A stretch of 56,048 nt of DNA from contig CAZPWM010000007.1 in the NCBI GenBank assembly GCA_964590575.1, positions 1 to 56,048 of the forward strand. Reading direction: 5' to 3'. Shown here one piece after another: positions 5,215 to 54,145 of the stretch. The notes under the pieces are model-generated. The model made no database searches, had not been told where the DNA came from, and worked only from the letters and a program-made list of their open reading frames with translations. A program made the translations under genes and the position numbers. The stretch's first letter is position 1. Every line of letters begins with the position of its first letter. The stretch comes from an uncultured archaeon. GTDB taxonomy: Archaea; Asgardarchaeota; Thorarchaeia; Thorarchaeales; Thorarchaeaceae.

Positions 5215-6429
5215 CTAAGATAGTCTCTTCACAAGGAGAGTGATAATCACAAAAATTGCCACAGTGATTCCTGAAGCTATCATGACGAGTTCGGTTCCAA
5301 TGCCTCCCAAGATGAAAGATATAACTGACACAAAGATTCCATCTGTTGCTGTATTCCCAGCTCCATCATACAATATGATTGAGATCGCATAAGTGCCTAA
5401 TTCAAGATGATCTAGATTAAATGTTATGTTGCTCCCGCTCCAAAATGCTGCGATTGTTATGGCTTCATTCTCTTTAATCTCATATGATTTTGGAAACTGG
5501 TCGTAGACATGCCATGTCAATGTGTTACCTGACGTTTCGACATCAATTGCAACATCCAAAAGCGGGAGGATACCCGGAGCCAAAGTGTCTTCGAGGAGCT
5601 GAGGAAACCTATCAAATGAACTACCAGTCCCTAGGATTTGATGATTTTCAGACCCATTATAATCTGACCAAAGATTGCCAATATTGAATCCGTCATCAAA
5701 TGAATTGTCCTCTCCATTATCAATCGCATTTCCTCCATCACTTCCAGATACATTGTTCCATCCAATAGAATTTCCAAAGACAGAGTTGTTATGAGAGTAG
5801 GATGTTATTTCAATACCATATTCCCTATTCGAGTAGATTAAGTTGTTGAGCATATCACAATGGTCTGATCCTTCGAATAGAATACCTTTATTATTATTGT
5901 ATACTCTGTTCTCCAGGACTGTGCAATTAGAAGCATAACGAAGCACAATCCCGTTCCAGCATCCAAATAATGAATTATCTACGACGAAACAATCAACTAC
6001 GCTTAATAGTTGAATACCGCTTACACCAGCAATGATCTCACACTGTTCCACTCGACCATTCTCTACATCTTGAAGTAATATCGCTGGTCTGGAAGCACCT
6101 GCTTCCAATTTACAGTTTGAAATCACAAAATTTGCAGTCGTGTCTTGAATCACAATACAACTTTCAGCATCCGTGATTTGGATATTTTCGAATGTATAAG
6201 GGTCAGAAGGAGTTCCTACACCTGAAGCCCCCTGCAGGACAAAGTCTACATTACTTGTGATGAGTATTGGTTCGCGTGTCTGGTATTGTGCAATAGTATT
6301 TTCTCGTATTGTACTCACATTGACGGACTTCAAACCTGAAGGAACTGAAGCGATTAACATACTGCTTGCAGTTGATAGTATAAGCAAGGATACTAGCATT
6401 GATGTGATACTGCTATGTTTCATCCTCAA
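5215..6429 (-). CDS. Surface protein: NosD/right-handed beta-helix + Ig-like domain + C-terminal TM anchor
   Basis: Signal-like N-terminus, GxGTxxDPY, repeated GIxL...N beta-helix coils, GNLWSDY, hydrophobic C-terminus ending KRLS. Confidence 0.8.
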   Translation of the reverse strand: MRMKHSSITSMLVSLLILSTASSMLIASVPSGLKSVNVSTIRENTIAQYQTREPILITSNVDFVLQGASGVGTPSDPYTFENIQITDAESCIVIQDTTANFVISNCKLEAGASRPAILLQDVENGRVEQCEIIAGVSGIQLLSVVDCFVVDNSLFGCWNGIVLRYASNCTVLENRVYNNNKGILFEGSDHCDMLNNLIYSNREYGIEITSYSHNNSVFGNSIGWNNVSGSDGGNAIDNGEDNSFDDGFNIGNLWSDYNGSENHQILGTGSSFDRFPQLLEDTLAPGILPLLDVAIDVETSGNTLTWHVYDQFPKSYEIKENEAITIAAFWSGSNITFNLDHLELGTYAISIILYDGAGNTATDGIFVSVISFILGGIGTELVMIASGITVAIFVIITLLVKRLS

Positions 6430-10236: not shown

Positions 10237-10407
10237 GATAATTGGGGCCGCTCAATCTGTTAAATGCTACGCTCTAGACACGACAAAGAAAGGGTGAGGT
10301 CAACCCAGCAAAGTAAAAAAAGGCTCTTTATGCATCCAATATCCGTACTAGGCACTGTAAATAGCAGTCACTACCATAAACACCAAATCAACAGGAAGGT
10401 TGCATAC

Positions 10408-12720
10408 GTGGATTCACCGAAAGTTCTATTCGAAATAGAAGATGACAAGAGCACGAGCGCTATTGCAGTTGGAGATGTCACTGGGAATGGTACTGCAGAG
10501 CTCTGTACTGGCGGTCGTGATGGTGTCCTTCGACTCTATGATGCTAATACGAGTGAGATTGCATTTCTTGCACAGCATGATGTCGGAGGGAGCATTCTCT
10601 CGATCAAAGTAGCTGATGCAAATAACGATGGACGAATGGAGCTTGTCGTCGGTCGTGCGATAGGAAGTGGTGAAGTACCAGGAGTGGCTGGAACTGTTCA
10701 AGTATTTCGTTTTGCTCCCAGTGGCCAGCTTGAGAAACTAGCTGAATTTGCAGTTGACCGCTTTGCAACAACTGTTTATGTTACCGATGTGACAGGTGAT
10801 GAGAAGAACGAGATTCTGGTTGGCGGTAGTGACTCCACACTCAGAATTCTCCAGATGGACAATGCGAATAACATCACCGAGTTTGTTAATCACAAGCTTG
10901 ATGATATGCCCATTGCAATTGGAACATGTGATGTCATTGGTGATGAGATAGAAGAGATTGTCACTGGAAACAGAGACCGCACACTCAGGATATTCAAGGT
11001 TCGGGACCACTCTGTTGATCAGATAGAGGTTATCGAACTACCCAGTCCAGTCATCTCTGTAGCAGCGGGTGATATCTTAGGCGACAGAAAGATGGAGCTT
11101 GGAGTTGTTACTCATGATGGTTCAATTCGTGTGTATAGAAACGAAGAGAGTAAGCTCGACCTATTCGCGAAACTTGAGAATGTGCATGCTTTGTCACTCA
11201 GAATTGAAGAGCTCAATGCGGACCATCAAGATGAGATTGTTGTAGCCACCTCTGATTTCAAGATTAATTTCTATAGCCTTCATATGGCAGACCTCAATCT
11301 AATAGCTTCTGTCGATATTGGGAAGAAAATCCTTTCCATTTGTGTTGGCGATGCAGGCGGCGATGGCCGAAAAGAGGTGCAAGTGGGTGTTTCTGATGGT
11401 CCACTGAAGGTTATTGAAGGCCTTTACAAAATTATTCCAACATTCGAAGTTAATCCTGAGGCAAAAGCCGGTACAGATCTCAGAGGAAACGTCACTGTCT
11501 ACAATGTCAGCGATCAGCCAATTACTGGAATATCTGGCAAGATCTATTGGTTCCCAAAGGACCACATGGATGTCGACCCACAACAACTCCGTTTTGATCT
11601 AGCTCCTGGAGAGAAGAAATCAGTCGAGGTTCATTTGATTCCTAAAGAAGAGGGCACTGTGATTATTCGACCCATTGTCCTGATGTGGACAGACACGAGT
11701 GGTCAGGTTAGACAGGTCACAACTCCGGAAACAGCTATTCTTGTCGAGAAAGGTGCATCTGTGGCTGCAGCAGCAGAGATAGCTCCAGTACCAGTAGAAC
11801 AGATCGTAACTTATGAACCTAAGGACATGATAGTCGATGAATCGCTATTTGGACCCGCTGTTGGGACCGGTTTTGGAGATGCGGCTATGAAAGACAAAGC
11901 TTCTGAGATATTGCACTCGACAATGTCTGATGATGGTGCAGATTCGCTAAAGGCTGCTGAGGATCTTCTCGATCAACTCTTTGGTGTTGAAGAAACTGGG
12001 GCTGCTATGTCTGGGATTGATGACATTGTAGCACTCGCAGCAGAACCAACTCCTACAGAAACTGTTATGACTGCTGCCGTTTCCGATTCTGAGAGCCAAT
12101 TTATCACAGAGATACGAAATCGGAGACCAAAGGCTCCACAACCTGGAACTGCCCCAGATTCATACCAGTTCCTGTTTAAGACAATGGTGATTGGAGAAGG
12201 TGCTGTCGGAAAGACTACACTAGTTAATCGATATGTAACTGGAGTTTTCGAACGAGACTACAAGACAACAATAGGAAGTCAGTTCGCCGTCAAACTCACC
12301 CATATCTCTCCGCCAGAGAGAGAGTACGCTACTGGTATCAAACTCCAGGCCTGGGACGTCGCCGGACAAGCGCGATTCAAGGCTGTGCGGAAGATGTACT
12401 ACTCTGGAGCAGCAGGTATCATTTTGGTGTTCGACGTCACGCGACGTCGCTCATTCACAGAGCTAGCCAAGTGGATCGAAGAAGCTGACGAGTCTGTTGG
12501 CACAAGAGTGCCAATGATCTGTGTGGGTAACAAAACAGATCTACCCGACCGTGCAGTGCCAGCTGATGAAGCAAAACGCTGGGCTGAGGATCAAGGGTTC
12601 CTATACATGGAATCATCAGCAAAAACCGGTGAGGGTGTGGCGGACATGTTCACGGTACTGGCTGAGGTCATGTGGCGAGAAGCCCGGAAGCATCAGGAAG
12701 ATAAGAAGTCTTCAATGTAG
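10408..12720 (+). CDS. FG-GAP/VCBS 7-bladed beta-propeller + Ig-like domain + Rab-type small GTPase fusion
   Basis: Seven DxxGDxxxE repeats, then a beta-sandwich, an acidic linker and a GTPase with G1 GEGAVGKT, G3 WDVAGQ, G4 NKTD, G5 ESSAK. Probable GTG start at 10408 after GGAAGGT; the ORF track starts at 10264. Confidence 0.88.
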   Translation: MDSPKVLFEIEDDKSTSAIAVGDVTGNGTAELCTGGRDGVLRLYDANTSEIAFLAQHDVGGSILSIKVADANNDGRMELVVGRAIGSGEVPGVAGTVQVFRFAPSGQLEKLAEFAVDRFATTVYVTDVTGDEKNEILVGGSDSTLRILQMDNANNITEFVNHKLDDMPIAIGTCDVIGDEIEEIVTGNRDRTLRIFKVRDHSVDQIEVIELPSPVISVAAGDILGDRKMELGVVTHDGSIRVYRNEESKLDLFAKLENVHALSLRIEELNADHQDEIVVATSDFKINFYSLHMADLNLIASVDIGKKILSICVGDAGGDGRKEVQVGVSDGPLKVIEGLYKIIPTFEVNPEAKAGTDLRGNVTVYNVSDQPITGISGKIYWFPKDHMDVDPQQLRFDLAPGEKKSVEVHLIPKEEGTVIIRPIVLMWTDTSGQVRQVTTPETAILVEKGASVAAAAEIAPVPVEQIVTYEPKDMIVDESLFGPAVGTGFGDAAMKDKASEILHSTMSDDGADSLKAAEDLLDQLFGVEETGAAMSGIDDIVALAAEPTPTETVMTAAVSDSESQFITEIRNRRPKAPQPGTAPDSYQFLFKTMVIGEGAVGKTTLVNRYVTGVFERDYKTTIGSQFAVKLTHISPPEREYATGIKLQAWDVAGQARFKAVRKMYYSGAAGIILVFDVTRRRSFTELAKWIEEADESVGTRVPMICVGNKTDLPDRAVPADEAKRWAEDQGFLYMESSAKTGEGVADMFTVLAEVMWREARKHQEDKKSSM

Positions 12721-16037: not shown

Positions 16038-17117
16038 GTGCAAATGCCTGAAGAACGAGAAAGCGAAACAAAAACAAAGAAGATCACATCTCTTCTCTCC
16101 ATCTCTCATGATAAGGATGTGGATGGATTAAACTCTGCCGCCATAGTTTGGAGATATGCAAAAGCAAAGGGTCTCGACTTCAAGGTGGTTCTTACTGATT
16201 ATGGCTCATTTGAACAGGTATTCTCTGCTGTTTCCAGAGAGCGGGATACTCTGATAATCATCACTGATCTTGGTATGGATGACACGACTATTGATGCTGT
16301 ACAAACCGGGCTGGCCAGAGCAATCTCGCAGGGATGCCGGGTAGTATGGCTGGACCATCACCACTGGTCGGATCAATCAATCAAGGTGATTCTCTCTCTT
16401 GGGAACAAACCAGTATTGAAAGTTAATCATGAGTTTTGTGCGGCAGAAATAACTCACAAGGTACTTATGCCGCGCGACGAGGTTTCTGAAGAGCTAGCAA
16501 AGATTGCTCATGATACAGACTTCAACCTTCGAGAAATTGAGGAAGCTACTGCACTCACTGATGCAGTCAGTGTTATTCGCTTCGGCGCTATTGACAAAAA
16601 GGAAGATGTAACAGATACTATCTATCCCCTCCTCACAAAATTGGCTGAAAGCGGGATGAATGGAGTGTGGGATAAAGATACACACAAATTCAAGGACCCT
16701 CTTCTACACAAACGTGTTGATCACTACAGAAAAGAGAAGGCAAAGAAGATGAGGAAAGCTCTCTCTGGACACAATGATCAGGTCATCCATGGAAAACTCG
16801 TACGAATTGTGGAGATTCCGACAGGTGTTACTTCTACAGATATGGGTACTTTCGCTTCAAACCAAGAGAACTTGACCTCTATTGATTCTGAGCTTAGAGT
16901 TGCAGATCTCTTGCTCTCCCTCAGTCAAGGAGGTATGCTTGGCTTTAGGAGAGGCAGTGATGGGGTGCTATGCAATGCAGCGGCGAAAATGTTCAATGGA
17001 GGTGGACATCCGTATGCTGCAGGGGGCGAATATGGTCTCTACGAGGACTTCCAGGCTGTTAGTGATGACATATTTCTAACTCTCTCGAAGAGTAAAGCAT
17101 GGATGTCTGATTCTTAA
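16038..17117 (+). CDS. DHH/DHHA1 family phosphoesterase
   Basis: HDKDVDG, ITDLG, LDHH and GGGHPYAAG motifs. Confidence 0.88.
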   Translation: MQMPEERESETKTKKITSLLSISHDKDVDGLNSAAIVWRYAKAKGLDFKVVLTDYGSFEQVFSAVSRERDTLIIITDLGMDDTTIDAVQTGLARAISQGCRVVWLDHHHWSDQSIKVILSLGNKPVLKVNHEFCAAEITHKVLMPRDEVSEELAKIAHDTDFNLREIEEATALTDAVSVIRFGAIDKKEDVTDTIYPLLTKLAESGMNGVWDKDTHKFKDPLLHKRVDHYRKEKAKKMRKALSGHNDQVIHGKLVRIVEIPTGVTSTDMGTFASNQENLTSIDSELRVADLLLSLSQGGMLGFRRGSDGVLCNAAAKMFNGGGHPYAAGGEYGLYEDFQAVSDDIFLTLSKSKAWMSDS

Positions 17118-18091
17118 ACTACTTCTTTCTCTCTCCGCGTCATCTGATCTAAAACCTGAATAAAATCGAAGCCATCTTCAAATAGCCTGTCAAAGGTTTT
17201 GATTGCATCATCAACGAGTCCGGGATTGTCTCTCCTATGAATAAGAGCTGCAACATTAGACTCTACACCATGAGTTAAGTAGAGAAGCATTTTATCTTCA
17301 TTCAGGCTGACAATTCTGTATGTCTTAATAGGCTCGCGTGTAAATCTAGCTTCAAGATTACCCGTCTTCATAACTTGTGAGAATGCATCAACAATTGGAG
17401 CGACATGCAATGCCATTGTCCTCAGATGGTTACTCTCTTGCCCGGATGGAGTAAGTAGACCCCGAACTCTGACACCCCTGAAACACGTTTCTAGGAGTTT
17501 CAGTTCAGTCACGCCACTTGGTCCTAGTCCATCTTCTAAGGTACTCATGTGAGCTAGGACTCGAATGAGATCGCCTTCCTTTGCTACATCTCCAATCTCT
17601 CGAATAATGGTACTTCTAACATTCTCGATGCCTTCAATCATTACCGATTTATCTATAATGGATTGGCCAGCAAGTTGGTGATGCAACATAAGAGCAAGCT
17701 GTTGAGCTCTGACAGATTTAAGCCGATTGAGTCTAGTCGTCAGCTCTTGCCTCTTTGTCAGACTTTCTGATAACTTATCTTGTCGTTTTGCTTCTAGTGC
17801 TTCTGCTACAACCCCTTCATTGATAGTGTATGTTCTCGGAGTATGAATAGTATCTACGCTGACGAATCCACTTTCTTCCAGATCATGCAATCGTCTGTAG
17901 ATGTATGCTTTTGTATACTTTTTACCGGTGACTAGCTCAAGACTACTTGATATGTTCCCATACTTTGCAGGTTTGTCGGTACCTCCTGCTGCCATGAGAA
18001 TCGCTTGAAATACCTGCATATGACTTGAGGTCATGTCAATACCAAGCCTTTCGAGATTATTTTGGAACTTCTTACCTGCCACAATATTCAC
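17114..18091 (-). CDS. TrmB-like transcription regulator (wHTH + coiled coil + PLD-like effector domain), paralog 3
   Basis: KAYIYRRLHDLEESGFV HTH, coiled coil, C-terminal NPGLVDDAIKTFDRLF. Confidence 0.72.
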   Translation of the reverse strand: MNIVAGKKFQNNLERLGIDMTSSHMQVFQAILMAAGGTDKPAKYGNISSSLELVTGKKYTKAYIYRRLHDLEESGFVSVDTIHTPRTYTINEGVVAEALEAKRQDKLSESLTKRQELTTRLNRLKSVRAQQLALMLHHQLAGQSIIDKSVMIEGIENVRSTIIREIGDVAKEGDLIRVLAHMSTLEDGLGPSGVTELKLLETCFRGVRVRGLLTPSGQESNHLRTMALHVAPIVDAFSQVMKTGNLEARFTREPIKTYRIVSLNEDKMLLYLTHGVESNVAALIHRRDNPGLVDDAIKTFDRLFEDGFDFIQVLDQMTRREKEVV

Positions 18092-19005
18092 CCCTCGAAG
18101 TCTAGTATATCTGTTCCCAATTCATAATCTCTGTCAAAGGCTTTAATGGCGTTGTCAACCAATTCGGGATTGGCACTTCTTGGTATCCACGTTGCTGAGA
18201 GCGGACTCTCAGAAACAATTAGCACAATCCCCTCCGTATTGCGTGCTATGAACTCATAGGTTGAGTCCTTTCTTGGAAAGACTCTGTATCCAACCTTCCC
18301 ACCTGCATCACGCCAATCTTTAATCCTCTTTCTATATCTGTCACGGATTTCCTTCTCGCACCTATTATGATCAATAGATCGGAACTCTATACCTTTTAAC
18401 GCCCAGTTGTCTACGCTTCTCAGTCTTTGTGGGTCCATATAGTCATGTTCGGACAACCACTCCAAGGTGATTCGAATGACGGCGCCCTTCTTGAGACCTC
18501 TGTACACCTTATCATCAAGCAATTTCACAATGTTCTCCCATCCTTGGGCAAAGTCTGGTTTCTCAACTTTCTTTTTCCCAGTTGCAAGGTCAATTACGCT
18601 GGTTGCCATGGTGTCAGAGTTCATATTTGATAGAACGTCCACCTCTGAATCAATCTGTTTAAGCTCTTTTTCAAGTGTCTTAGTACTCTTAGAAATTAAG
18701 TTTACCAGTGCTTTCTCAATAATTGCTATGCTGGATGTATATCCGTGTTTGTGACCCTCCTTGTCAATCCTAACAAATCCCTCTTTTTCAAGCGTAGAGA
18801 GACTCCTGTATATTAGAGAATCTTTCCCTTTTCTTGATCCTTCATCTGAGGCAAGCTGCTTTCGTATAGTTTCGAAATCAATGAAATCGGAGGGTAATTT
18901 CTGCGCCTTGAGCAACGCACCTAGAACAATCATGTCCTTTCTGGTTCTATCTAGCCCAATTATTTCAAACACTTGTTCATGTTGAAATTCGGTTGTCACC
19001 CTCAT
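18088..19005 (-). CDS. TrmB-like transcription regulator, paralog 2
   Basis: SLIYRSLSTLEKEGFV HTH; C-terminal NPELVDNAIKAFDRDY. Confidence 0.72.
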   Translation of the reverse strand: MRVTTEFQHEQVFEIIGLDRTRKDMIVLGALLKAQKLPSDFIDFETIRKQLASDEGSRKGKDSLIYRSLSTLEKEGFVRIDKEGHKHGYTSSIAIIEKALVNLISKSTKTLEKELKQIDSEVDVLSNMNSDTMATSVIDLATGKKKVEKPDFAQGWENIVKLLDDKVYRGLKKGAVIRITLEWLSEHDYMDPQRLRSVDNWALKGIEFRSIDHNRCEKEIRDRYRKRIKDWRDAGGKVGYRVFPRKDSTYEFIARNTEGIVLIVSESPLSATWIPRSANPELVDNAIKAFDRDYELGTDILDFEG

Positions 19006-19022
19006 ACTCCCTCTCTGTCAAA

Positions 19023-20072
19023 TTACCCGCTCTTGTCTTTAGCAAGACTGCTAATTAGTCCTCCGGGTTCTGCACCAAATGATGCCATTTCTTCAGGCGT
19101 CATCTCTAGGAATGATCTAGCCTTCTTCCAGTCCCTATCAAAAGCCTTCACAGCATTATCAATCAGGTCCGGGTTGAAGTCCCTCGTGACCCATGTAGCA
19201 GTAACTGGGTCCTCAGCAATAACTAACGCCATATTGTCCCTGTTTAAGCTCACCTGATTGTATGTTTTTGGACCATCGAAAATCTTAACATCAAACTTTG
19301 CACCTTTCTTTCTTAATTCGCGTACCTGCACCATCAACACAAGTGCTTCCTTGAGATTGAGTGCTGGATCGTCTAGCTCTTTCAGTGTGAAAACGTCCTT
19401 TGATAACATATACCTAACATCTGCTCCCCTCATGGCGGCTTCAACAAATTTTTTGGAACGTTCCACAAGTGCACCATCTATGAAAGGTCCCACCCAAAGG
19501 ACTGTTGCTCGAACTATGTCTCCCTTCTTTGCCACATCAAGCATGTTGAATTTTAAGACCCTATGAAGCTCTTCAACACCACGCACAACACGTGAACTGA
19601 TTTTTTGCTGAGCTCCTGTCACAGTCTTTACTAACTGCTGAGCAAGAATACTACAATCCAATTGAGTAACTTCCTCTAGGGTTTGTACAACCTCATTCTT
19701 TTGAGTTTCAAGCGCAAGAATTCGATCACTCTTTAACTGCTCAAGCCCTGCCATCACAGTGTTTACATCAGCGATGTACTTCTTGCGGTGGGCTGATGGA
19801 TTCTCCACACGTACCAACTGAGATTCCACCAGAGATTTGAGCACTCTATGGACCCATGCTTTTGTTAACTTGGACTGTGGTTCATCTTTTTGCAACTGAC
19901 CATAGATATCTGTAAACGTCAAGGGGATGGGCGGATCGGTTTGGAGTTTGAGAATGATGCTTAACAGATTCATCAGACGGGACTCTTGCCGATCTCCGAT
20001 CATAAATCCACAGAGCTCAAGTGCTTCTGAGAGTCCTTCATCTTCTGTCATAAAACACCCCTCCTTACTCAT
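19023..20072 (-). CDS. TrmB-like transcription regulator, paralog 1
   Basis: KAWVHRVLKSLVESQLV HTH; AAMRGADVRY; NPDLIDNAVKAFDRDW. An alternative start MTEDE at 20051 follows GGAGGGGTG. Confidence 0.72.
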   Translation of the reverse strand: MSKEGCFMTEDEGLSEALELCGFMIGDRQESRLMNLLSIILKLQTDPPIPLTFTDIYGQLQKDEPQSKLTKAWVHRVLKSLVESQLVRVENPSAHRKKYIADVNTVMAGLEQLKSDRILALETQKNEVVQTLEEVTQLDCSILAQQLVKTVTGAQQKISSRVVRGVEELHRVLKFNMLDVAKKGDIVRATVLWVGPFIDGALVERSKKFVEAAMRGADVRYMLSKDVFTLKELDDPALNLKEALVLMVQVRELRKKGAKFDVKIFDGPKTYNQVSLNRDNMALVIAEDPVTATWVTRDFNPDLIDNAVKAFDRDWKKARSFLEMTPEEMASFGAEPGGLISSLAKDKSG

Positions 20073-20320: not shown

Positions 20321-21547
20321 AAGGCCGCTTACAGCGATTGCTCGAAGATATCCTACACCAATTTTGGCTACCATTGGCAGGAAGTCTGTCATGAGGGTCA
20401 TGATTGTTGCGACGCTTGCGTGTCCCTGGATTAATTCGTTCAGGGTCCTCGCGTCGAGTTGTCCAAGCACTACCTCTGCAGCTGCTATCGGATTGTTGAA
20501 CATGGCGTACTTCGAAACAGCCCACATACCTTTGCCAGTGTTTGTGATATTAGAGGCTAGTTTTGTCTTTCTATACTCTTTCTCATACTCGTAAACACTC
20601 TTCTTAGAGAAATCTCCAGAGTCTGCCATTCTCTTCGCATGCTTTGCGAGGACCTGGCCAGCGTGGAAGCAGGTTGTGACTCCGCCGCCAACAATGGAGG
20701 AGACCTGACCTGCTGAGTTTCCACATAATGCGACACCGGCATCAGTGAATTTTGGGATAATTCCTGCGCAAGGGACCACACCACCATTCACAGCTGTAAT
20801 CTTTGCATTCTGAGTTTTAGGATGGGTCCTCATGTACTTCCTTAGGACGTCCTGCATAGGAGGGAGTGCATACCAGTTGGTCTTTGATGACGGCACACGA
20901 CCTATTCCGAGATTAACCTCTGTTTCAGATCTCGGATACAACCACAGATAACCGAGTCCCACGTCTTTGCCAACATAGAAGTAGGCAACATTCGGGTCTA
21001 CACCTTTACAGTTTGTGAGCTTGAATCTATACCCATAGCTGAGTAGCCACTTTGGATGAGTGAAACCTGCGGATTCAGAAACTCTACTGAAAGAACCGTC
21101 CGCACCCACAGTCAGGTTGGCTCGTTCTTCCTCGTTCTGGTTATACTTAACACCCACTACGGAATTACACTCTTTGATGACAGAGTTAACTCGAGCTTTG
21201 TACCTGAACTCTGCCCCATCTGACAGTGCTCTGTCTCTCAAGAGTTCTTGACACAAGTCCTCGTCGAGGAGGTATGAATTACCAAGCAGGGTTCTATCTA
21301 CGACAATATTTGCTCCTGAGTCTAAGCTCTCTCCAACAATAGAGGTATACTTGTTTCCGATAAACTCTGAATCTGGTTTGACTCGTAGAAAGTTCAAAGC
21401 CTTGTCAGTGCACAATTCTCCCATGAGAGAATGAGTCACTTCCTGACGCTTCTCTAGGACTAGTGTTTTCAAACCATAACTTGCTGTCTTTTCAGCAGTC
21501 ATGAGACCAGCTGGACCTGTTCCAACAATTATCACATCGTGTGTCAT
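20318..21547 (-). CDS. Geranylgeranyl reductase-family FAD-dependent oxidoreductase (non-canonical)
   Basis: DVIIVGTGPAG, VGADG, GYLWLYP, GGVVP, LCGNSAG...GGG motifs. Confidence 0.82.
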   Translation of the reverse strand: MTHDVIIVGTGPAGLMTAEKTASYGLKTLVLEKRQEVTHSLMGELCTDKALNFLRVKPDSEFIGNKYTSIVGESLDSGANIVVDRTLLGNSYLLDEDLCQELLRDRALSDGAEFRYKARVNSVIKECNSVVGVKYNQNEEERANLTVGADGSFSRVSESAGFTHPKWLLSYGYRFKLTNCKGVDPNVAYFYVGKDVGLGYLWLYPRSETEVNLGIGRVPSSKTNWYALPPMQDVLRKYMRTHPKTQNAKITAVNGGVVPCAGIIPKFTDAGVALCGNSAGQVSSIVGGGVTTCFHAGQVLAKHAKRMADSGDFSKKSVYEYEKEYRKTKLASNITNTGKGMWAVSKYAMFNNPIAAAEVVLGQLDARTLNELIQGHASVATIMTLMTDFLPMVAKIGVGYLRAIAVSGL

Positions 21548-39143: not shown

Positions 39144-40385
39144 TTAGCTCACTTGTTCAGGAGGTGGTAGTTGATCTACCTTTCTTGGCTCTTCTCTGAA
39201 AGTAACATCATCCTCTGCCTCTAAGCTGTCCGTGTAGAGTACTTCGCCTTCTACATATGCCCCTCTCTCAATATAGATAGTCTTTCCATAAAGACTTCCT
39301 ACACGTGCACGTTCTTCAATTCTGATGTCATTGCCATATAGTGAATCAGTTCTTGCACGTTCGCGAATGAGAATCTCATTTGACTCGACAAAGCCTCTAA
39401 CCTCAGATCTCTTTCCAATTCGGAAACCATCAGTGGCTCTGATGTACTCTGCTTGTATTTCGCCACCTACGATTATTCGGAAGGTGTCAATACGCCCCTC
39501 AGCCCTCACGGTGCCGCCGACTTTGATTTTTCCATCGCTCTTTAGATTCCCACCTATTGAAGCAGTTCCACCAACATTGAGGCCTTCAGAAACCTCTAGA
39601 TTTCCCTCCGTCTTTACGGTTCCACCTACGTCGATCAATCGACCTGATGCATTACCCATAATCTTCACTGTCCCACCGACATTGATCTCATCAAAAGTCA
39701 AGTCGCCTTCTGCCTTGAAGGTACCACCAATGTCAACAGTATTTACCTTGGAACCTGGACCAACCTTGGCTGTTCCACCAACGTCAAGGTCCTCAATCTC
39801 AATTGCTTCTTCAGCTTTGAAGCTTCCTCCAACTGAAACCTTCTTGATGTATCCTCGGACAGTTTTTCCAGAACCGCCTGCGTCAAATTCTTCAGCTTGA
39901 ATTTTTCCATGGATTCCGACAGACCCACCACCAGAAACCCTCTCAACATCAACATTACCTTCGATGCTGACTGAGCCGCCTCCTGTGAGTCTCTGCGCCT
40001 TAGCGTCACCCGTGACTTTAATGGTAGCACCTGCTTTTGCAGAAATGCATTCAAGGTTTCCTTCTACCTTAAGTGCTGCACCAACTTCGATATCACGAGA
40101 TTTGACATTACCATATACTGCAAGGCTCCCTTTTGGTACACTAGCTGTTTTCTCCGCGATAAGATTTCCATTTACCGTTATCATATCTCGACTCTTAGAC
40201 TCAAGTCGATCACATTGCAGTGAACCATTAATCTCGAGTTCATCAACAACGAATAGTGTACCAGTGATTACAATTGTGTCGCCCTCAGATGGTACGAGAG
40301 TCCTACAACTTCGGATCTCGACATCACCTTCAACCTTTCCGAGTTCAACCACATCTTCATTTTTGAATAATAATTTTTCAGCCAT
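39144..40385 (-). CDS. Polymer-forming/bactofilin-like beta-helix repeat protein
   Basis: Many ~16-17-aa repeats of the type (I/V)xVGGx(V/F)xxxGx; likely start MAEKL at 40385 after AAGGTGAAGG. Confidence 0.72.
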   Translation of the reverse strand: MAEKLLFKNEDVVELGKVEGDVEIRSCRTLVPSEGDTIVITGTLFVVDELEINGSLQCDRLESKSRDMITVNGNLIAEKTASVPKGSLAVYGNVKSRDIEVGAALKVEGNLECISAKAGATIKVTGDAKAQRLTGGGSVSIEGNVDVERVSGGGSVGIHGKIQAEEFDAGGSGKTVRGYIKKVSVGGSFKAEEAIEIEDLDVGGTAKVGPGSKVNTVDIGGTFKAEGDLTFDEINVGGTVKIMGNASGRLIDVGGTVKTEGNLEVSEGLNVGGTASIGGNLKSDGKIKVGGTVRAEGRIDTFRIIVGGEIQAEYIRATDGFRIGKRSEVRGFVESNEILIRERARTDSLYGNDIRIEERARVGSLYGKTIYIERGAYVEGEVLYTDSLEAEDDVTFREEPRKVDQLPPPEQVS

Positions 40386-40499
40386 CTTGGCCTTCACCTT
40401 GTGTAATTCTAATTGAAATCGCTCACTTTTAGTATATAAAGCGGGGCCACAAATTAGGGTCACATGTTGTGACTATCCTCGATTCTACTTGCACTATAC

Positions 40500-44743: not shown

Positions 44744-46606
44744 TCACAGGGTTGTTCCTCGCCTTCTAAGGATGTAGACAATGATAACTACTGCAACAAC
44801 TCCTCCAACGACTGATACACCGATCACTGTAACATTTGGTCTACTTATTGTGAAGACCAAATCTGAAACATCCTCTGAAACAAGACCTGAAGCACTTCTA
44901 GCCACAACACGGATGAGATACTGATTTCCATCTGGTATTCCACTTATGTCCCAAACGAATGAGTTGTCCTCAATAGAATCAGTTAGCTCTGACCATGTTT
45001 CACCAGCATCTAGAGAATAATAGATGTCATATGTGACTGGAAGTCCCCATGATTCCACAGCGTCACTCCATGTTATATCATAGTTTCCAAAGATCGATTC
45101 TCCTCCATTCGGTGTGAGGACTGTTGGAGCTGATAGATTGTGGTTCTTGACCTCGTACTCTACACCTGTGGTGTATTCAGAAACCAGTCCATCAGTACAC
45201 TGAGCAATGACCTTGAACCTGTACTCTGCGCTTTCCGTATACTCTGAGGAGTTCCATTCCAGATTTGTGTCAACGAGATCGTGTCCAATCTCAATCCATG
45301 ATGTACCCCCATTATTTGATACTGACACATTGTAGGTTGCATCATGACCAAACGTGTCACTTGAAACACTCCATCGAAGTTGAACGGGTCCCCAGAATTT
45401 CTCTCCACTCATTGTTTCGTTTGGAAAGATCAGTATTGGTTTTGTAAGGATGTGCATCAAATCAGTCTGGAAAACTTTGACATGTGGCTCATTATCGCTG
45501 TGTTCACGAACCTCATCATAGAGATATGGCCGGTCGACGATATCATTCTCGTCTAAATCAGGCCAGGTCCACACATCATAATAATTCTCAATGATGATAT
45601 TGTTTGAACCCAAATCAATAAGATAACTAGCAATCACTGAAAATTCCTGATTATTCTCAATGAAATTATTCAGAGTGATGTTGTTGTTGTTTGCTTGACA
45701 ACGAAGTCCTTGCAACCAACTCACATAGAAGGTGTTAGCAATGATATCTGTTGAGTCTCCAGCCACATCTACGGAGTATCCTCCACTCCAATAAAGGACA
45801 TTATCTTTAATGCGACATTGGGATGATACTTCAATTGAAATACCATCCTCAACGCTGTACTTCACCAGATTCTCCTCTATCTTACATCTGTGTGAGTTTC
45901 CAATCTTAATTCCACTTAGGTGGCTATGTGTTATCTCATTGAGTGTTATATTATTCTCAGAGGAGTCTCGTAGACGAATCCCATCATATGCTGCTGAACT
46001 AACATAATTCTCGGAGATTGAGCAATTATTCGAATAATCAATTAGAAATCCCCATCCGCTCACAGCACCTATGGTGTTATTGGTAAATTCACAGTAGTTG
46101 GAACCAAGCGAATACAAACCGGCGGAATCTGCACCAGTGATACTTCGTATTGTATTATTGGTTACTATGACACTGTTTGACTCGGTCACAAGTAAGCCAC
46201 AACTATCTGAGTCTTGTATCGTAGTATTCCAAACTTTGGCATTTGTCACATTCTGTAGAAGAATTCCTATTGATCCCCCAACAATAAGACTCCCTCGAAC
46301 TTCAAAGAATACAGTCGTATTTCCTATTTGGATTGCAGAGTTTCCTGATGTCGTGATATTAAGTCCCTCTATGATATAGGGGTCACTCACCGAACCATTG
46401 CCATCCCATGAGTTCAGAGCCACTTGATTAGCAAAGTCAGTATTATTTGAGATATAAATGGGAAGACTTTCTTCATAGCCTGGACTGAAGATATTCAATA
46501 TCTCTTGAGTATGAACAGTTGGGCTATCAACAAAGCAGATGGCCATTGCTAATGGACACAAGACAAGAAGAGTCAAGCATAAGAAAATCTTTGTTTTACT
46601 AATCAT
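44744..46606 (-). CDS. Surface protein: NosD-like beta-helix + 2 Ig/FN3-like domains + TM anchor
   Basis: Signal peptide, GNGSVSDPY, GIxI...N coils, PNGGE...WD...YLIRV domains, TM helix plus RRR. Confidence 0.82.
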   Translation of the reverse strand: MISKTKIFLCLTLLVLCPLAMAICFVDSPTVHTQEILNIFSPGYEESLPIYISNNTDFANQVALNSWDGNGSVSDPYIIEGLNITTSGNSAIQIGNTTVFFEVRGSLIVGGSIGILLQNVTNAKVWNTTIQDSDSCGLLVTESNSVIVTNNTIRSITGADSAGLYSLGSNYCEFTNNTIGAVSGWGFLIDYSNNCSISENYVSSAAYDGIRLRDSSENNITLNEITHSHLSGIKIGNSHRCKIEENLVKYSVEDGISIEVSSQCRIKDNVLYWSGGYSVDVAGDSTDIIANTFYVSWLQGLRCQANNNNITLNNFIENNQEFSVIASYLIDLGSNNIIIENYYDVWTWPDLDENDIVDRPYLYDEVREHSDNEPHVKVFQTDLMHILTKPILIFPNETMSGEKFWGPVQLRWSVSSDTFGHDATYNVSVSNNGGTSWIEIGHDLVDTNLEWNSSEYTESAEYRFKVIAQCTDGLVSEYTTGVEYEVKNHNLSAPTVLTPNGGESIFGNYDITWSDAVESWGLPVTYDIYYSLDAGETWSELTDSIEDNSFVWDISGIPDGNQYLIRVVARSASGLVSEDVSDLVFTISRPNVTVIGVSVVGGVVAVVIIVYILRRRGTTL

Positions 46607-46646
46607 ATGTTATCAGACCTACTTGATTCATTGTTTTTTTCTGGCT

Positions 46647-48509
46647 TCAGGTTTTACCAGCGCTCTTCTTTCTAAGAAGAATCACTAAGACTACAACAAC
46701 TGCGACACCAGCAATCCCAACTCCAGCTAGTATCATAGCTATGTTGTCTCCTCCTGTTGGTTCAGTCGATGTAGTTGTCGTTGTAGACGTAGTTGCGTGC
46801 TGAATTGAAAATGTCACTGAGATTGTTTCGGATCTAACTCCCCCATCTGCTGAAGCAATAACTTTGACAACATAGTTGTCACCATTGTCTAGACCAGAAA
46901 TATCCCATAAATAGCTATTATCAGTTCGCAGAGAAACGAGAGCGTCCCAACTAGAACCTCCATCCGAAGAGTAATGCAGAGAATAGCTCACACTGAATCC
47001 CCACGAATCCACAGCAGAGTCCCACTCAATCATCAGACTTGTATCGAACGGTCCCGAACTGGAGGGTGACGTAATGGTGGGGTCCGAAAGAGTGTGTGCA
47101 ATTAGAGCGAACTCTCCATCTGAGTCATCTGATACAGATAATCCCTCTGAGCATTCAGCAACTATACGAATAAGATAATGATCCGTCTTCACTTCTGAAG
47201 TTGTGTTCCACTCATACTGAGTAGCAGTCAAATTCCCAACGAGTTTCACCCAATCTACTCCCGAATTGAGTGAGAACTGGATCGAATAATTGACTGTATG
47301 ACCAACTGAATCATAACATGCGGTCCACCGCACAGTGACAGAGTCAGCAATCGACTCACCTCCATTTGGGTATATCACAGTCATGGGCGTCATATAGTGA
47401 AACTCTGGTGGGTTTGTAGGATGAGTCAAAGGATACGGATCGTCATTCATTACCGCTCCCTCAAGCATATATGGAATGTCCACAATCTGGTCAAAATCAT
47501 CATCAGGAGTGGTCCAATCACTCCAGTAGTTATACAATACATTCACCAATGCTGCATCAAAAGCCTGAGATGTTCCTCCAATGTTATTGCCAATGAATGT
47601 ATTCCACTTGATTGTATTATTACCTGAAGAGATCTCCACGTAGAACCCGTGTTCTGTTGAGTTAGCTATTGTATTGTTGAGGATGCTGTTCTGATGTGCA
47701 CCATGGGAAAGATGTATTCCACATGTATTGGGATTCACGTCAGCTGGGTCAAAGATGCTGTTGAATGTAATTTCGTTTAAGCTGGATTGATTGGATATCC
47801 AGATTGCATTGTCATTACCGAACAAGGTGTTTCCAATGACCTGGCTACTATTAGTGTTCCTCAACCATATTCCCAGTTCGTCATCATAGACTGTGTTATT
47901 CCAAATGTCAAGGTCTGTAGAAGAATTAGCCCAAATGCCATTGTATGTATTTTGATGCATTTCATTATGATGGATTTTTACATTGGTTGATGAGTTTACT
48001 CTAATTCCACTCTCTGACGAATCCCACACCCTATTATTCGTGACATTTATCCCCAGACAACCTGTGTCTATAAATATCCCGTGTCTATTATACACTGCAG
48101 TGTTATCGTAAACCAATCCATTTTTCGCATTTCTAATATAGATGGCGTCTAGTGATGATGTAATGCTATTAAGATAGTTATTCTGGATTACAAAGTACGC
48201 TTCAGTATTTTCAATCACTATCAATTCAAAGTTGCTATCCGTGATGCTATAGCCCTCAATCCTGAATGGCGTGTTTTCATCTCCTGTTCCTGGAAATCCA
48301 TATGCGCTGAAATCGCTATCACTAAGAATGGAGATAGGACCTCTAGCCGTATATGCTGCTTGGAATCCTGTATCTTCTTTTATTATTTGAACAGACTCCC
48401 CTATTTGAGGGACTCCTGTTGTTATCTCCCCAATTGTGCAATATGTTACGATAGATAGTAACAGGATTACACCAAACCACGCGACCTTTCTCAACTCAGT
48501 CTTCACCAA
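46647..48509 (-). CDS. Surface protein paralog: beta-helix + 2 Ig/FN3-like domains + Thr-rich linker + TM anchor
   Basis: GTGDENTPF, NYWSDW, YPNGGE, ATTSTTTTTST, TM helix plus RKK. Confidence 0.82.
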   Translation of the reverse strand: MVKTELRKVAWFGVILLLSIVTYCTIGEITTGVPQIGESVQIIKEDTGFQAAYTARGPISILSDSDFSAYGFPGTGDENTPFRIEGYSITDSNFELIVIENTEAYFVIQNNYLNSITSSLDAIYIRNAKNGLVYDNTAVYNRHGIFIDTGCLGINVTNNRVWDSSESGIRVNSSTNVKIHHNEMHQNTYNGIWANSSTDLDIWNNTVYDDELGIWLRNTNSSQVIGNTLFGNDNAIWISNQSSLNEITFNSIFDPADVNPNTCGIHLSHGAHQNSILNNTIANSTEHGFYVEISSGNNTIKWNTFIGNNIGGTSQAFDAALVNVLYNYWSDWTTPDDDFDQIVDIPYMLEGAVMNDDPYPLTHPTNPPEFHYMTPMTVIYPNGGESIADSVTVRWTACYDSVGHTVNYSIQFSLNSGVDWVKLVGNLTATQYEWNTTSEVKTDHYLIRIVAECSEGLSVSDDSDGEFALIAHTLSDPTITSPSSSGPFDTSLMIEWDSAVDSWGFSVSYSLHYSSDGGSSWDALVSLRTDNSYLWDISGLDNGDNYVVKVIASADGGVRSETISVTFSIQHATTSTTTTTSTEPTGGDNIAMILAGVGIAGVAVVVVLVILLRKKSAGKT

Positions 48510-52969: not shown

Positions 52970-54145
52970 CTACACTATCACTATTCTCCTCTTCTGTTTT
53001 CTCACACCTTCTGGCCAGTCTTCAATCGCTTGGCTTAGGGTCGTTGTTAGTTCTATTTTGTCAATTGGAAAATCTGTCAGTGATTTGCACTCAAAAAGAG
53101 GTGTGACATCGAGAGATATTAGTTCGTTATCGTCTAGTTTCAGACACTCTAGTTTTATACAGTTCTTCAAGGGAGATAGCTCGACCTCTCTGAGACCCAT
53201 TCCATCTATAGTTAGTATTTTCAAATCCGTGCACTCTGATAATGGGCTCAGGTCGATTTCTAAAGTTTTGTTTATTCCAATGTTTAGTGCATCTAGCTTG
53301 ATGCATGAAGCGAGTGGTGTAAGATCTAAAGACTCAAGATCATTGTCTGTTAGGTCGAGATACTCCAGATTCGGGCAGGATGCCAAGGGGGAGAGATCTA
53401 TTGTTTCTAGGTGATTCATGTAAAGAATTAGCTCCTTGATGCGAGTACTCCCTGCCAGAGGTGATAGGTCGATTGTCGTGAGTTGATTCAGACCAAGATT
53501 GATTCTGGTAAGTTTGTGAAGGTTGTGGATTTCTTCTAAATGGACCTCTATTAGGTTGAAATGTTCTGCTTCCAAGACCGTTTTACCGCCAGTTGCAGGA
53601 ATCTTTTTCGGGAGTTCTTGTTCTTTCAGTTCAAGACGAGGGTTTCTAATTCGATACCAAATCATATAGACTATAGCAGGAATACAACCCCCAATCTTGA
53701 CTCCTTCTATAAACACAGACATGGTATTAGCTCCAGTGAGTACACCTAATACTGTCACTGTGCTGCAAACCAGAGTACACGACACAAGCAGGGAAACTAC
53801 GAATCCCTTTGGAGAATAGAACTTGAACTTGGTGAGTTCAGAATCTTCTAGGTCTGATGACTTCGTTGATTTGTCTTGTTTGTCTTTGTAAAGATGGTAC
53901 TCGTACTCGAGGTATGCGATTGAAAGAACCAGTCCTGATGCGCCACCGACGAAGGTCAATACAGTCCAAAAAAGTTTCTGCAATAGCGGAGTATCGAGAA
54001 AACCTAGAATGTTCCATGCGATAAAACCAATAATAAGACCTGAAACAAACCAAAGAATCTTCAAATTCTTCTTTGATGTCAAGCCTGGCATCTGAACATT
54101 CCCAATAATATGTGCTCCTGAAAGCCTATCTATCTTGCTCCCCAT
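52970..54145 (-). CDS. 4-TM membrane protein with C-terminal leucine-rich repeats
   Basis: Four hydrophobic helices, then 6-7 repeats of 23 aa, LxxLxLxxNxLxxIDLSPLxxC. Confidence 0.85.
   Translation of the reverse strand: MGSKIDRLSGAHIIGNVQMPGLTSKKNLKILWFVSGLIIGFIAWNILGFLDTPLLQKLFWTVLTFVGGASGLVLSIAYLEYEYHLYKDKQDKSTKSSDLEDSELTKFKFYSPKGFVVSLLVSCTLVCSTVTVLGVLTGANTMSVFIEGVKIGGCIPAIVYMIWYRIRNPRLELKEQELPKKIPATGGKTVLEAEHFNLIEVHLEEIHNLHKLTRINLGLNQLTTIDLSPLAGSTRIKELILYMNHLETIDLSPLASCPNLEYLDLTDNDLESLDLTPLASCIKLDALNIGINKTLEIDLSPLSECTDLKILTIDGMGLREVELSPLKNCIKLECLKLDDNELISLDVTPLFECKSLTDFPIDKIELTTTLSQAIEDWPEGVRKQKRRIVIV

Follow-up and report, generated by a model that had tools for sequence, protein, structure and literature searches.

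We analyzed a 56,048-nucleotide contig from an uncultured Asgard archaeon of the order Thorarchaeales (CAZPWM010000007.1, assembly GCA_964590575.1, positions 1 to 56,048 of the forward strand; hereafter the window), and focused on one gene at 10408..12720 (+) whose 770-amino-acid product joins a β-propeller, an immunoglobulin (Ig)-like β-sandwich, an acidic linker and a Rab-like GTPase on a single chain. The gene opens with GTG and ends with a stop at 12718-12720. Its open reading frame (ORF) extends over 10264..12720 (+), giving 818 amino acids when counted from the first ATG; homology starts at GTG 10408, and the 48 codons that precede it from ATG 10264 are not common to homologues. In all 25 related loci printed for comparison, the codon that corresponds to GTG 10408 is TTG or GTG, in 19 of them at the printed start and in six two codons upstream of a match beginning at residue 3. 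A Shine-Dalgarno (SD)-like GGAAGGT, read from the sequence at 10394..10400 (+), stands 8 nucleotides ahead of the GTG, and a similar GGA(A/T)GGT or GGAG lies about 8 nucleotides upstream of the start in most of these loci. The start codon at a homologous position and the SD-like motif therefore place the gene at 10408..12720, as an initial annotation made from the DNA letters had proposed.

The chain divides into a seven-bladed FG-GAP-type propeller (residues 1-338; 10408..11421, +), an Ig-like sandwich directly after it (residues 339-450; 11422..11757, +), a linker rich in alanine and proline (residues 451-583, 133 amino acids; 11758..12156, +) and a Rab-like small GTPase (G) domain (residues 584-770; 12157..12717, +). 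Pfam matches and AlphaFold2 models of the N-terminal half define these domains and folds. We found no transmembrane helix anywhere in the protein, the maximum 19-residue Kyte-Doolittle mean being 1.37; the N-terminus (MDSPKVLFEIEDD) is not of the signal-peptide kind; and there is no C-terminal cysteine, as the last Cys is residue 705 and the chain ends in KKSSM. On all of these points our results agree with the initial annotation. We read the product from its sequence as a soluble, cytoplasmic, multidomain GTPase particular to one Asgard order, of the Thorarchaeota type.

An assembly chimera, or a mis-called ORF joining two genes, would have nothing in its favor beyond the unsupported 48-residue extension from the first ATG, and we consider this explanation negligible given an uninterrupted frame in independent assemblies and conservation that extends over all four parts. 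Pfam Ras and propeller families occur together in 116 of the 120 best homologues (from 176 with E ≤ 1e-3), most of them 765-785 amino acids long; the remaining four are 455-604 amino acids, and one of these, P0112, stops inside the P-loop. Among 80 loci kept from GenBank contigs, with one genome taken per species, 63 cover both halves, contig ends truncate 6, and the remaining 11 are paralogues of the G domain standing alone. Open frames of 757-826 amino acids without stops are found in most matching genomes, including the single-contig genomes G320 and G368. In clustering at 50%, the full-length family forms three clusters among 1.84 billion representatives, followed by a gap to matches at E 2e-38. 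Split forms did not appear: a search limited to shorter proteins gave 33 matches, all of them short pieces, several of which bear the label 'partial' in their source; most come from contigs no longer than a few kilobases.

The family is confined to a narrow group. Titles of the GenBank contigs read Thorarchaeota or a generic Promethearchaeota, 'archaeon' or 'uncultured archaeon', and once Hermodarchaeota. A survey of 400 genomes across the phylum, with matches accepted at E ≤ 1e-20, recovered the gene in 77 of 85 genomes of the window's family (f1) and in the single genome of a sister family of the same order (f2). No fusion was found in the other families surveyed, where the sole match was a 28%-identity propeller lacking a GTPase. 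The f2 form, P0123, keeps the full architecture, is 41% identical to the N-terminal part of the window's protein and is 90% identical to a truncated ORF of the f2 genome. The fusion described in the initial annotation is thus kept in relatives, within one order and not Asgard-wide. The fusion is a real, strongly conserved gene across one Asgard order, and its product is a lineage-specific multidomain Asgard Rab-like GTPase.

Public names for members of the family are generic (WD40 repeat protein, FG-GAP-like repeat-containing protein, GTP-binding protein), and full-text literature searches, in which supplementary tables were not covered, returned no description of a propeller-Rab fusion. Tran et al. 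2024 (PMC10933270), as excerpted, mention longin and roadblock domains as fusion partners of GTPases, along with 'various domains of unknown function' in MKD1. The words propeller, BBS, Rab, cilia and KICSTOR do not occur in the main text of Kostlbacher et al. 2026.

Conservation is highest in the G domain, which scores 0.90 in an alignment of 55 sequences; the propeller follows with 0.83, the Ig domain with 0.78 and the linker with 0.60. The G domain matches Pfam Ras at 4.5e-46 and NCBIfam small_GTP at 7.6e-22. The P-loop GEGAVGKT (residues 596-603; 12193..12216, +) is followed by the switch-I residue T621, by switch II DVAGQ with its catalytic glutamine (residues 650-654; 12355..12369, +), by the G4 motif NKTD (residues 708-711; 12529..12540, +) and by SAK (residues 737-739). 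Across the 55 sequences the nucleotide-binding and catalytic G1-G5 residues are invariant, including D650, A652, G653, Q654, N708, K709 and D711, and the motifs are invariant or nearly so, the P-loop without exception. As initially annotated, every G box is present and the Rab-like segments IGSQF, KLQAW, RFKAVR, YYSGA and LVFDVT can all be read in the translation. These segments, the second of them as KLQAWDVAGQ, line up with their counterparts in Rab14 and in the stand-alone Thorarchaeota Rab (Thor-Rab), and are of the type of the RabF family motifs of Pereira-Leal and Seabra (as cited in PMC4915359).

Part of the domain also matches Pfam Roc (9e-31, residues 639-759 in the 818-residue numbering), and ROCO proteins typically combine a Roc-type G domain with repeat domains. 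The fusion could on this account be a ROCO-like GTPase activated by dimerization, in which the G domain, instead of acting as a classical switch driven by GEFs and GAPs, serves as a nucleotide-dependent dimerization module joining two propeller platforms. A TBC RabGAP was unmatched in the window's genome, which would speak for this account, although control genomes were unmatched as well, which makes the observation uninformative. We judge this account very unlikely. No COR domain or other ROCO hallmark was found at E ≤ 1, the G domain is C-terminal, and Ras scores 156.8 bits compared to 107 for Roc. A search against PDB sequences returned Thor-Rab (7EZB) as the best match (1.6e-41), then Rab14, Sec4 and Rab11, and all 60 best PDB rows listed for the G domain are Rab, Ypt or Sec4 proteins. 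Its nearest paralogues, moreover, are ordinary stand-alone Rab-like GTPases.

The window's genome contains 21 Ras-family matches, of which the closest to the fused G domain is a 191-amino-acid stand-alone protein at 53% identity; the others reach at most 42%. We constructed a maximum-likelihood G-domain tree of 33 rows, thorarchaeal sequences only, comprising 13 fused domains, 8 members of the stand-alone group with 53-57% identity and 12 other paralogues from the window's genome, with a midpoint root for drawing only. All 13 fused domains group in a single clade (99/94), in which the second-family member is basal. Its sister is a clade of stand-alone GTPases of 182-207 amino acids (99/96), whose best PDB match is again 7EZB (1.6e-55), and the two share a node with support 95/79. 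Because the fused domains form a single clade, sister to stand-alone GTPases, the tree fits a duplication of a stand-alone thorarchaeal Rab-like gene followed by one fusion event. Fused and stand-alone domains are fixed differently at 33 positions, 7 of which lie in switch II/α2, and are identical in the switch-I core YKTTIGSQF.

The prenylatable C-terminal cysteine and hypervariable tail of eukaryotic Rabs are missing from the fusion. According to excerpts of its published description (PMC10933270), Thor-Rab likewise lacks a C-terminal prenylatable cysteine, binds GDP and GTP-γ-S, releases phosphate at about the rate of human Rab11B and has a switch-I arginine in common with MglA. The fused protein has a threonine in place of that arginine, reading YKTTIG against YKRTIG in Thor-Rab. 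An external GTPase-activating protein (GAP) is plausible because the fusion is without an MglA-like switch-I arginine. The window's genome encodes 11 Roadblock/LC7 and 2 TRAPP-Bet3 matches, none near the fusion gene, and proteins of these two types are possible regulators of the fusion. Elsewhere in the genome, a Roadblock/LC7 gene at G000:C44:20026-20241 (-) is divergent from the genome's best-scoring Ras-family gene (20430-20918, +), an MglA/MglB-like pairing, and two TRAPP/Bet3-family ORFs of 193 and 177 amino acids lie within 3 kilobases of each other at G000:C4:27548-30779 (+).

The linker carries a net charge of -16 (composition A 21, E 12, D 12, P 10) and is probably disordered and flexible. 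Within it, per-column conservation in the 55-sequence alignment picks out three islands. The first, SLFGPAVGTGF, occupies residues 479-489 (11842..11874, +). The second, residues 513-526 (SLKAAEDLLDQLFG; 11944..11985, +), is nearly invariant: E518 is identical in all 55 sequences, and A517, L520, L521, D522, L524, F525 and G526 are conserved in at least 90%. If helical, it would be amphipathic, with a hydrophobic moment of 1.89. The third (ES..EIRxRxPKxPxPG), at residues 562-583 (12091..12156, +), is basic and proline-rich and runs into the G domain.

In the propeller, which bears a net charge of -27, seven loops of the form D-x3-[DGN]-x3-E begin at residues 23, 70, 127, 175, 222, 268 and 315, spaced 46-57 residues apart, and each is followed by a WD-like strand (G-x-x-D-x-x-L/I-R/K-hydrophobic). 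The seven blades and motif strings listed in the initial annotation are thus all present. Such repeated loop-strand units building a seven-bladed propeller are a feature of the FG-GAP/VCBS class; bacterial VCBS proteins and integrins are typically secreted or exposed at the surface, a location not shared by the fusion, which has neither a signal peptide nor a transmembrane segment. An AlphaFold2 model of residues 1-455, computed from the 55-sequence alignment, shows a seven-bladed propeller and a β-sandwich (mean predicted local distance difference test score (pLDDT) 91.3, predicted template-modeling score 0.86) and contains no helix of four or more residues; modeled alone, the sandwich reached a pLDDT of 92.0. 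Pfam matches in this half include FG-GAP_3 (7.5e-18, four stretches), FG-GAP (3.9e-6), Beta-prop_BBS7 (8.4e-16) and BBS2_Mid (1.8e-14), the last two above Pfam's cut-offs, along with PHTB1_N and Itfg2, and a weak ASH match (0.008) falls in the middle domain.

Together these features suggest a tethered switch and platform, a reading to which we assign a probability of roughly 0.55: a Rab-like domain would be held by a flexible acidic linker of about 130 residues to a protein-binding propeller-Ig platform, with nucleotide-dependent docking between parts. The G domain would cycle between GTP and GDP states, hydrolyzing GTP as its intact motifs predict. The platform would replace the prenylated tail and separate effectors of eukaryotic Rabs, directing the switch to a given partner or structure. 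Docking may be mediated by the putative amphipathic helix of the linker (SLKAAEDLLDQLFG) and by the switch-II surface peculiar to the fusion, and its target could be the protein's own platform (in cis), a second copy (in trans) or a regulator. The GTPase had been described initially as a regulatory switch carried by the scaffold itself; its Rab-like nature holds, while control of the propeller by the GTPase, or the reverse, is not supported.

Some observations weigh against the switch-platform reading. Disorder of the linker is deduced from composition and low conservation alone. The neighborhood offers no partner: of 27 loci compared (the window and 26 related ones), 25 have an identical set of eight flanking genes, arranged and oriented alike, and the other two differ only through extra ORF calls; these flanks are metabolic. 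Upstream lies an NMT1-type ABC transporter with its ATPase divergent, and downstream two indolepyruvate-type oxidoreductase subunits are convergent on the opposite strand. We rejected an operon or partner inference from these flanks: although conserved, they are metabolic and lie on the opposite strand. The neighborhood is silent on function because the gene stands alone on its strand. Evidence for expression is too thin to carry a claim about transcription or habitat, and such libraries can contain DNA: two sediment metatranscriptome runs matched (word shares 0.09 and 0.06), with five contigs of 151-249 nucleotides on the gene, four in 11045-11483 and one, partly fitting at 90-95% likeness, at 11947-12003, and no cover on the flanks.

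Other genes of the window include three tandem ORFs of 325, 305 and 349 amino acids at 17114-20072 (-) with no Pfam match at 1e-8, which appear to fall in a paralogous family (ORF cluster 9) of 83 members found in 25 of the 27 syntenic loci. The C-terminal half of a 439-amino-acid protein at 39144-40463 (-) contains a bactofilin domain (1.7e-11), and the protein is a possible cytoskeletal polymer former. NosD/right-handed β-helix domains occur in two tandem 620-amino-acid proteins at 44744-48509 (-) and in a 404-amino-acid protein at 5215-6429 (-), and a 391-amino-acid leucine-rich-repeat protein (LRR_8 4.2e-10) lies at 52970-54145 (-).

The switch-platform reading bears on a gap in our view of Asgard cell biology. 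Asgard archaea encode many Rab-, Arf- and Rag-like GTPases with almost no known effectors or targeting mechanisms, and their Rab-like members are without the prenyl tail that puts eukaryotic Rabs on membranes. An order-wide Rab-like switch tied covalently to a propeller-Ig platform is a ready-made pair of a GTPase and its candidate effector or anchor.

The initial annotation had gone further and proposed a protocoatomer or BBSome-like subunit. A protocoatomer is contradicted by the architecture, which contains no α-solenoid and in which only the linker and the G domain follow residue 450. The broader alternative holds that the propeller-Ig half shares true ancestry with subunits of the BBSome (BBS1/2/7/9) or of KICSTOR (ITFG2), and that the protein is a coat- or adaptor-like scaffold assembling on membranes under its own GTPase. 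The BBSome itself provides the parallel, since ARL6-GTP recruits it via the BBS1 propeller. In a Foldseek search with the model, BBS2 (1.4e-18), BBS9 (9.7e-17), BBS7 (1.5e-15) and BBS1 (2.0e-14) took ranks 1-9, ahead of ITFG2 (5.2e-13) and integrin α (6.2e-13), so the four BBSome propeller subunits and ITFG2 do head the solved structural matches. In sequence, the N-terminal profile found ITFG2 (2.3e-4) and then BBS7 (9e-3) as its best PDB matches, with BBS2 at 0.49.

We nevertheless regard true kinship with these subunits as unlikely. Outside the family, prokaryotic FG-GAP proteins are the strongest relatives (E 2e-38 to 1e-13) and far closer, at 65-149 bits compared to 18-23 bits for BBS7 and ITFG2. 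The Pfam matches to BBS7, BBS2_Mid and Itfg2 are not specific, because 22 of 24 non-family FG-GAP proteins drawn from the 150 best matches also match BBS2_Mid and/or Beta-prop_BBS7 (E ≤ 1e-5), including proteins with CHAT and TPR or DUF11 domains and one with a signal peptide. BBS2_GAE, GAE_BBS1 and the later BBS domains gave no Pfam match at E ≤ 1, and the fusion has no coiled coil, platform or helical domain, which speaks against membership of the BBS2/7/9 group. The middle domain is Ig-like, as initially described; besides a GAE domain, it matches macroglobulin MG, transglutaminase, CARDB, TRAP-β and MSP/ASH domains equally well. Clusters in the ESM Atlas mix bacterial VCBS (0.87) with BBS2/BBS1 (0.81-0.84), all below the 0.9 level that counts, and an Ig-like domain accompanies the propeller in bacterial and Thermoplasmatota FG-GAP clusters too (scores likewise below 0.9, to be taken as leads only). 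The restriction of the family to one order also argues against such kinship.

A link through other Asgard propellers deserves notice. Nine of the ten nearest single-propeller relatives that we fetched lack a signal peptide, P0195 being the exception, and two named single-propeller relatives come from Asgard metagenome-assembled genomes, one Helarchaeales and one Promethearchaeota. A group of Asgard propellers without a signal peptide (P0253-type; four representatives and a 744-amino-acid protein from another Asgard family) is homologous to the thorarchaeal propeller, with an hhalign probability of 99.5% and E 2.5e-22 over 235 columns. Its profile reaches ITFG2 at 1.2e-9 and BBS2 at 5.4e-7, which favors kinship with those subunits, and also RACK1 at 6e-7 and CRTAC1 at 2.8e-6. 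The two ITFG2 stretches that it matches are not collinear, and the likeness therefore points to the repeat level. An October 2026 preprint (10.64898/2026.10.28.762692), as excerpted, describes one structural cluster limited to Asgard archaea and eukaryotes, labeled BBS7/ITFG2 and matching an existing catalogue of eukaryotic signature proteins, a result that also speaks for the kinship. A real link from cytoplasmic Asgard propellers to those of ITFG2 and the BBS proteins is plausible; within this Asgard group, the fusion would represent a side branch. The likeness of the fusion itself to BBSome and KICSTOR scaffolds is genuine and too weak to show shared ancestry.

Two further propeller genes were seen in the course of these comparisons. 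In the window's genome, the fused propeller has a single clear paralogue, a stand-alone 335-amino-acid propeller without a signal peptide (L002 1248-2255 (-), G000:C56; E 5.8e-11, 22% identity); it adjoins a gene that encodes a small hydrophobic protein, and no GTPase gene is adjacent. The 744-amino-acid protein mentioned above (L090 2080-4314 (-), G143:C1) combines a related propeller at its N-terminus with a C-terminal half in which '...YSRSAPRGY' modules recur, and is flanked by one TFIIB-like and one gelsolin-like ORF, both named by eye only.

The boldest interpretation would make the fusion the single-chain survivor of an ancient Asgard module in which a GTP-state small GTPase binds a cytoplasmic FG-GAP propeller with an ear-like Ig domain, following the logic of ARL6-BBS1 or Rag-KICSTOR, and would make signal-peptide-less Asgard propellers the source of those in eukaryotic BBS proteins and ITFG2. 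We see this as a long shot, and a pre-eukaryotic origin of the BBS/ITFG2 scaffold toolkit, argued through the fusion's propeller, as a minority reading. If the propeller is a real BBS/ITFG2 relative, part of the toolkit for ciliary-coat or nutrient-sensing scaffolds predates eukaryotes.

The fusion can be set beside several known systems. Prokaryotic FG-GAP/VCBS proteins, such as the Helarchaeales FG-GAP-like P0144 and the P0253-type group, share its loop motif, and some have an Ig-like domain after the propeller; none of 24 scanned carries a GTPase, and many such proteins are secreted or are giants with multiple propellers. ITFG2 consists of a propeller alone and acts in complex with KPTN, SZT2 and C12orf66. 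As part of KICSTOR (PDB 9O5A, 9V6E), it resembles the fusion at the level of the repeat. BBS1, BBS2, BBS7 and BBS9 of the BBSome (PDB 6VBU, 6VOA) likewise begin with a cytoplasmic seven-bladed FG-GAP-like propeller followed by an Ig-like sandwich, have a small GTPase as companion and are the top Foldseek and VIA matches of the thorarchaeal module, with a structural margin of 2-3 Z over WD40 propellers. Identity is only 12-17%, and the fusion differs in lacking the coiled coil, platform and helical domains and a Pfam GAE match; its GTPase is Rab-like and covalently attached, whereas that of the BBSome is Arf-like and separate. The closest parallel for the G domain is with Thor-Rab (PDB 7EZB/7EZD/7EZE; Tran et al. 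2024, PMC10933270) and other stand-alone Asgard Rab-like GTPases (Surkont & Pereira-Leal 2016, PMC4915359), with which it shares a Rab-like G domain, all G boxes, the RabF-like segments and the lack of a prenylatable Cys at the C-terminus. Compared to Thor-Rab, the fusion adds about 583 N-terminal residues of propeller, Ig domain and linker, and compared to its stand-alone sisters its switch II/α2 is fixed differently.

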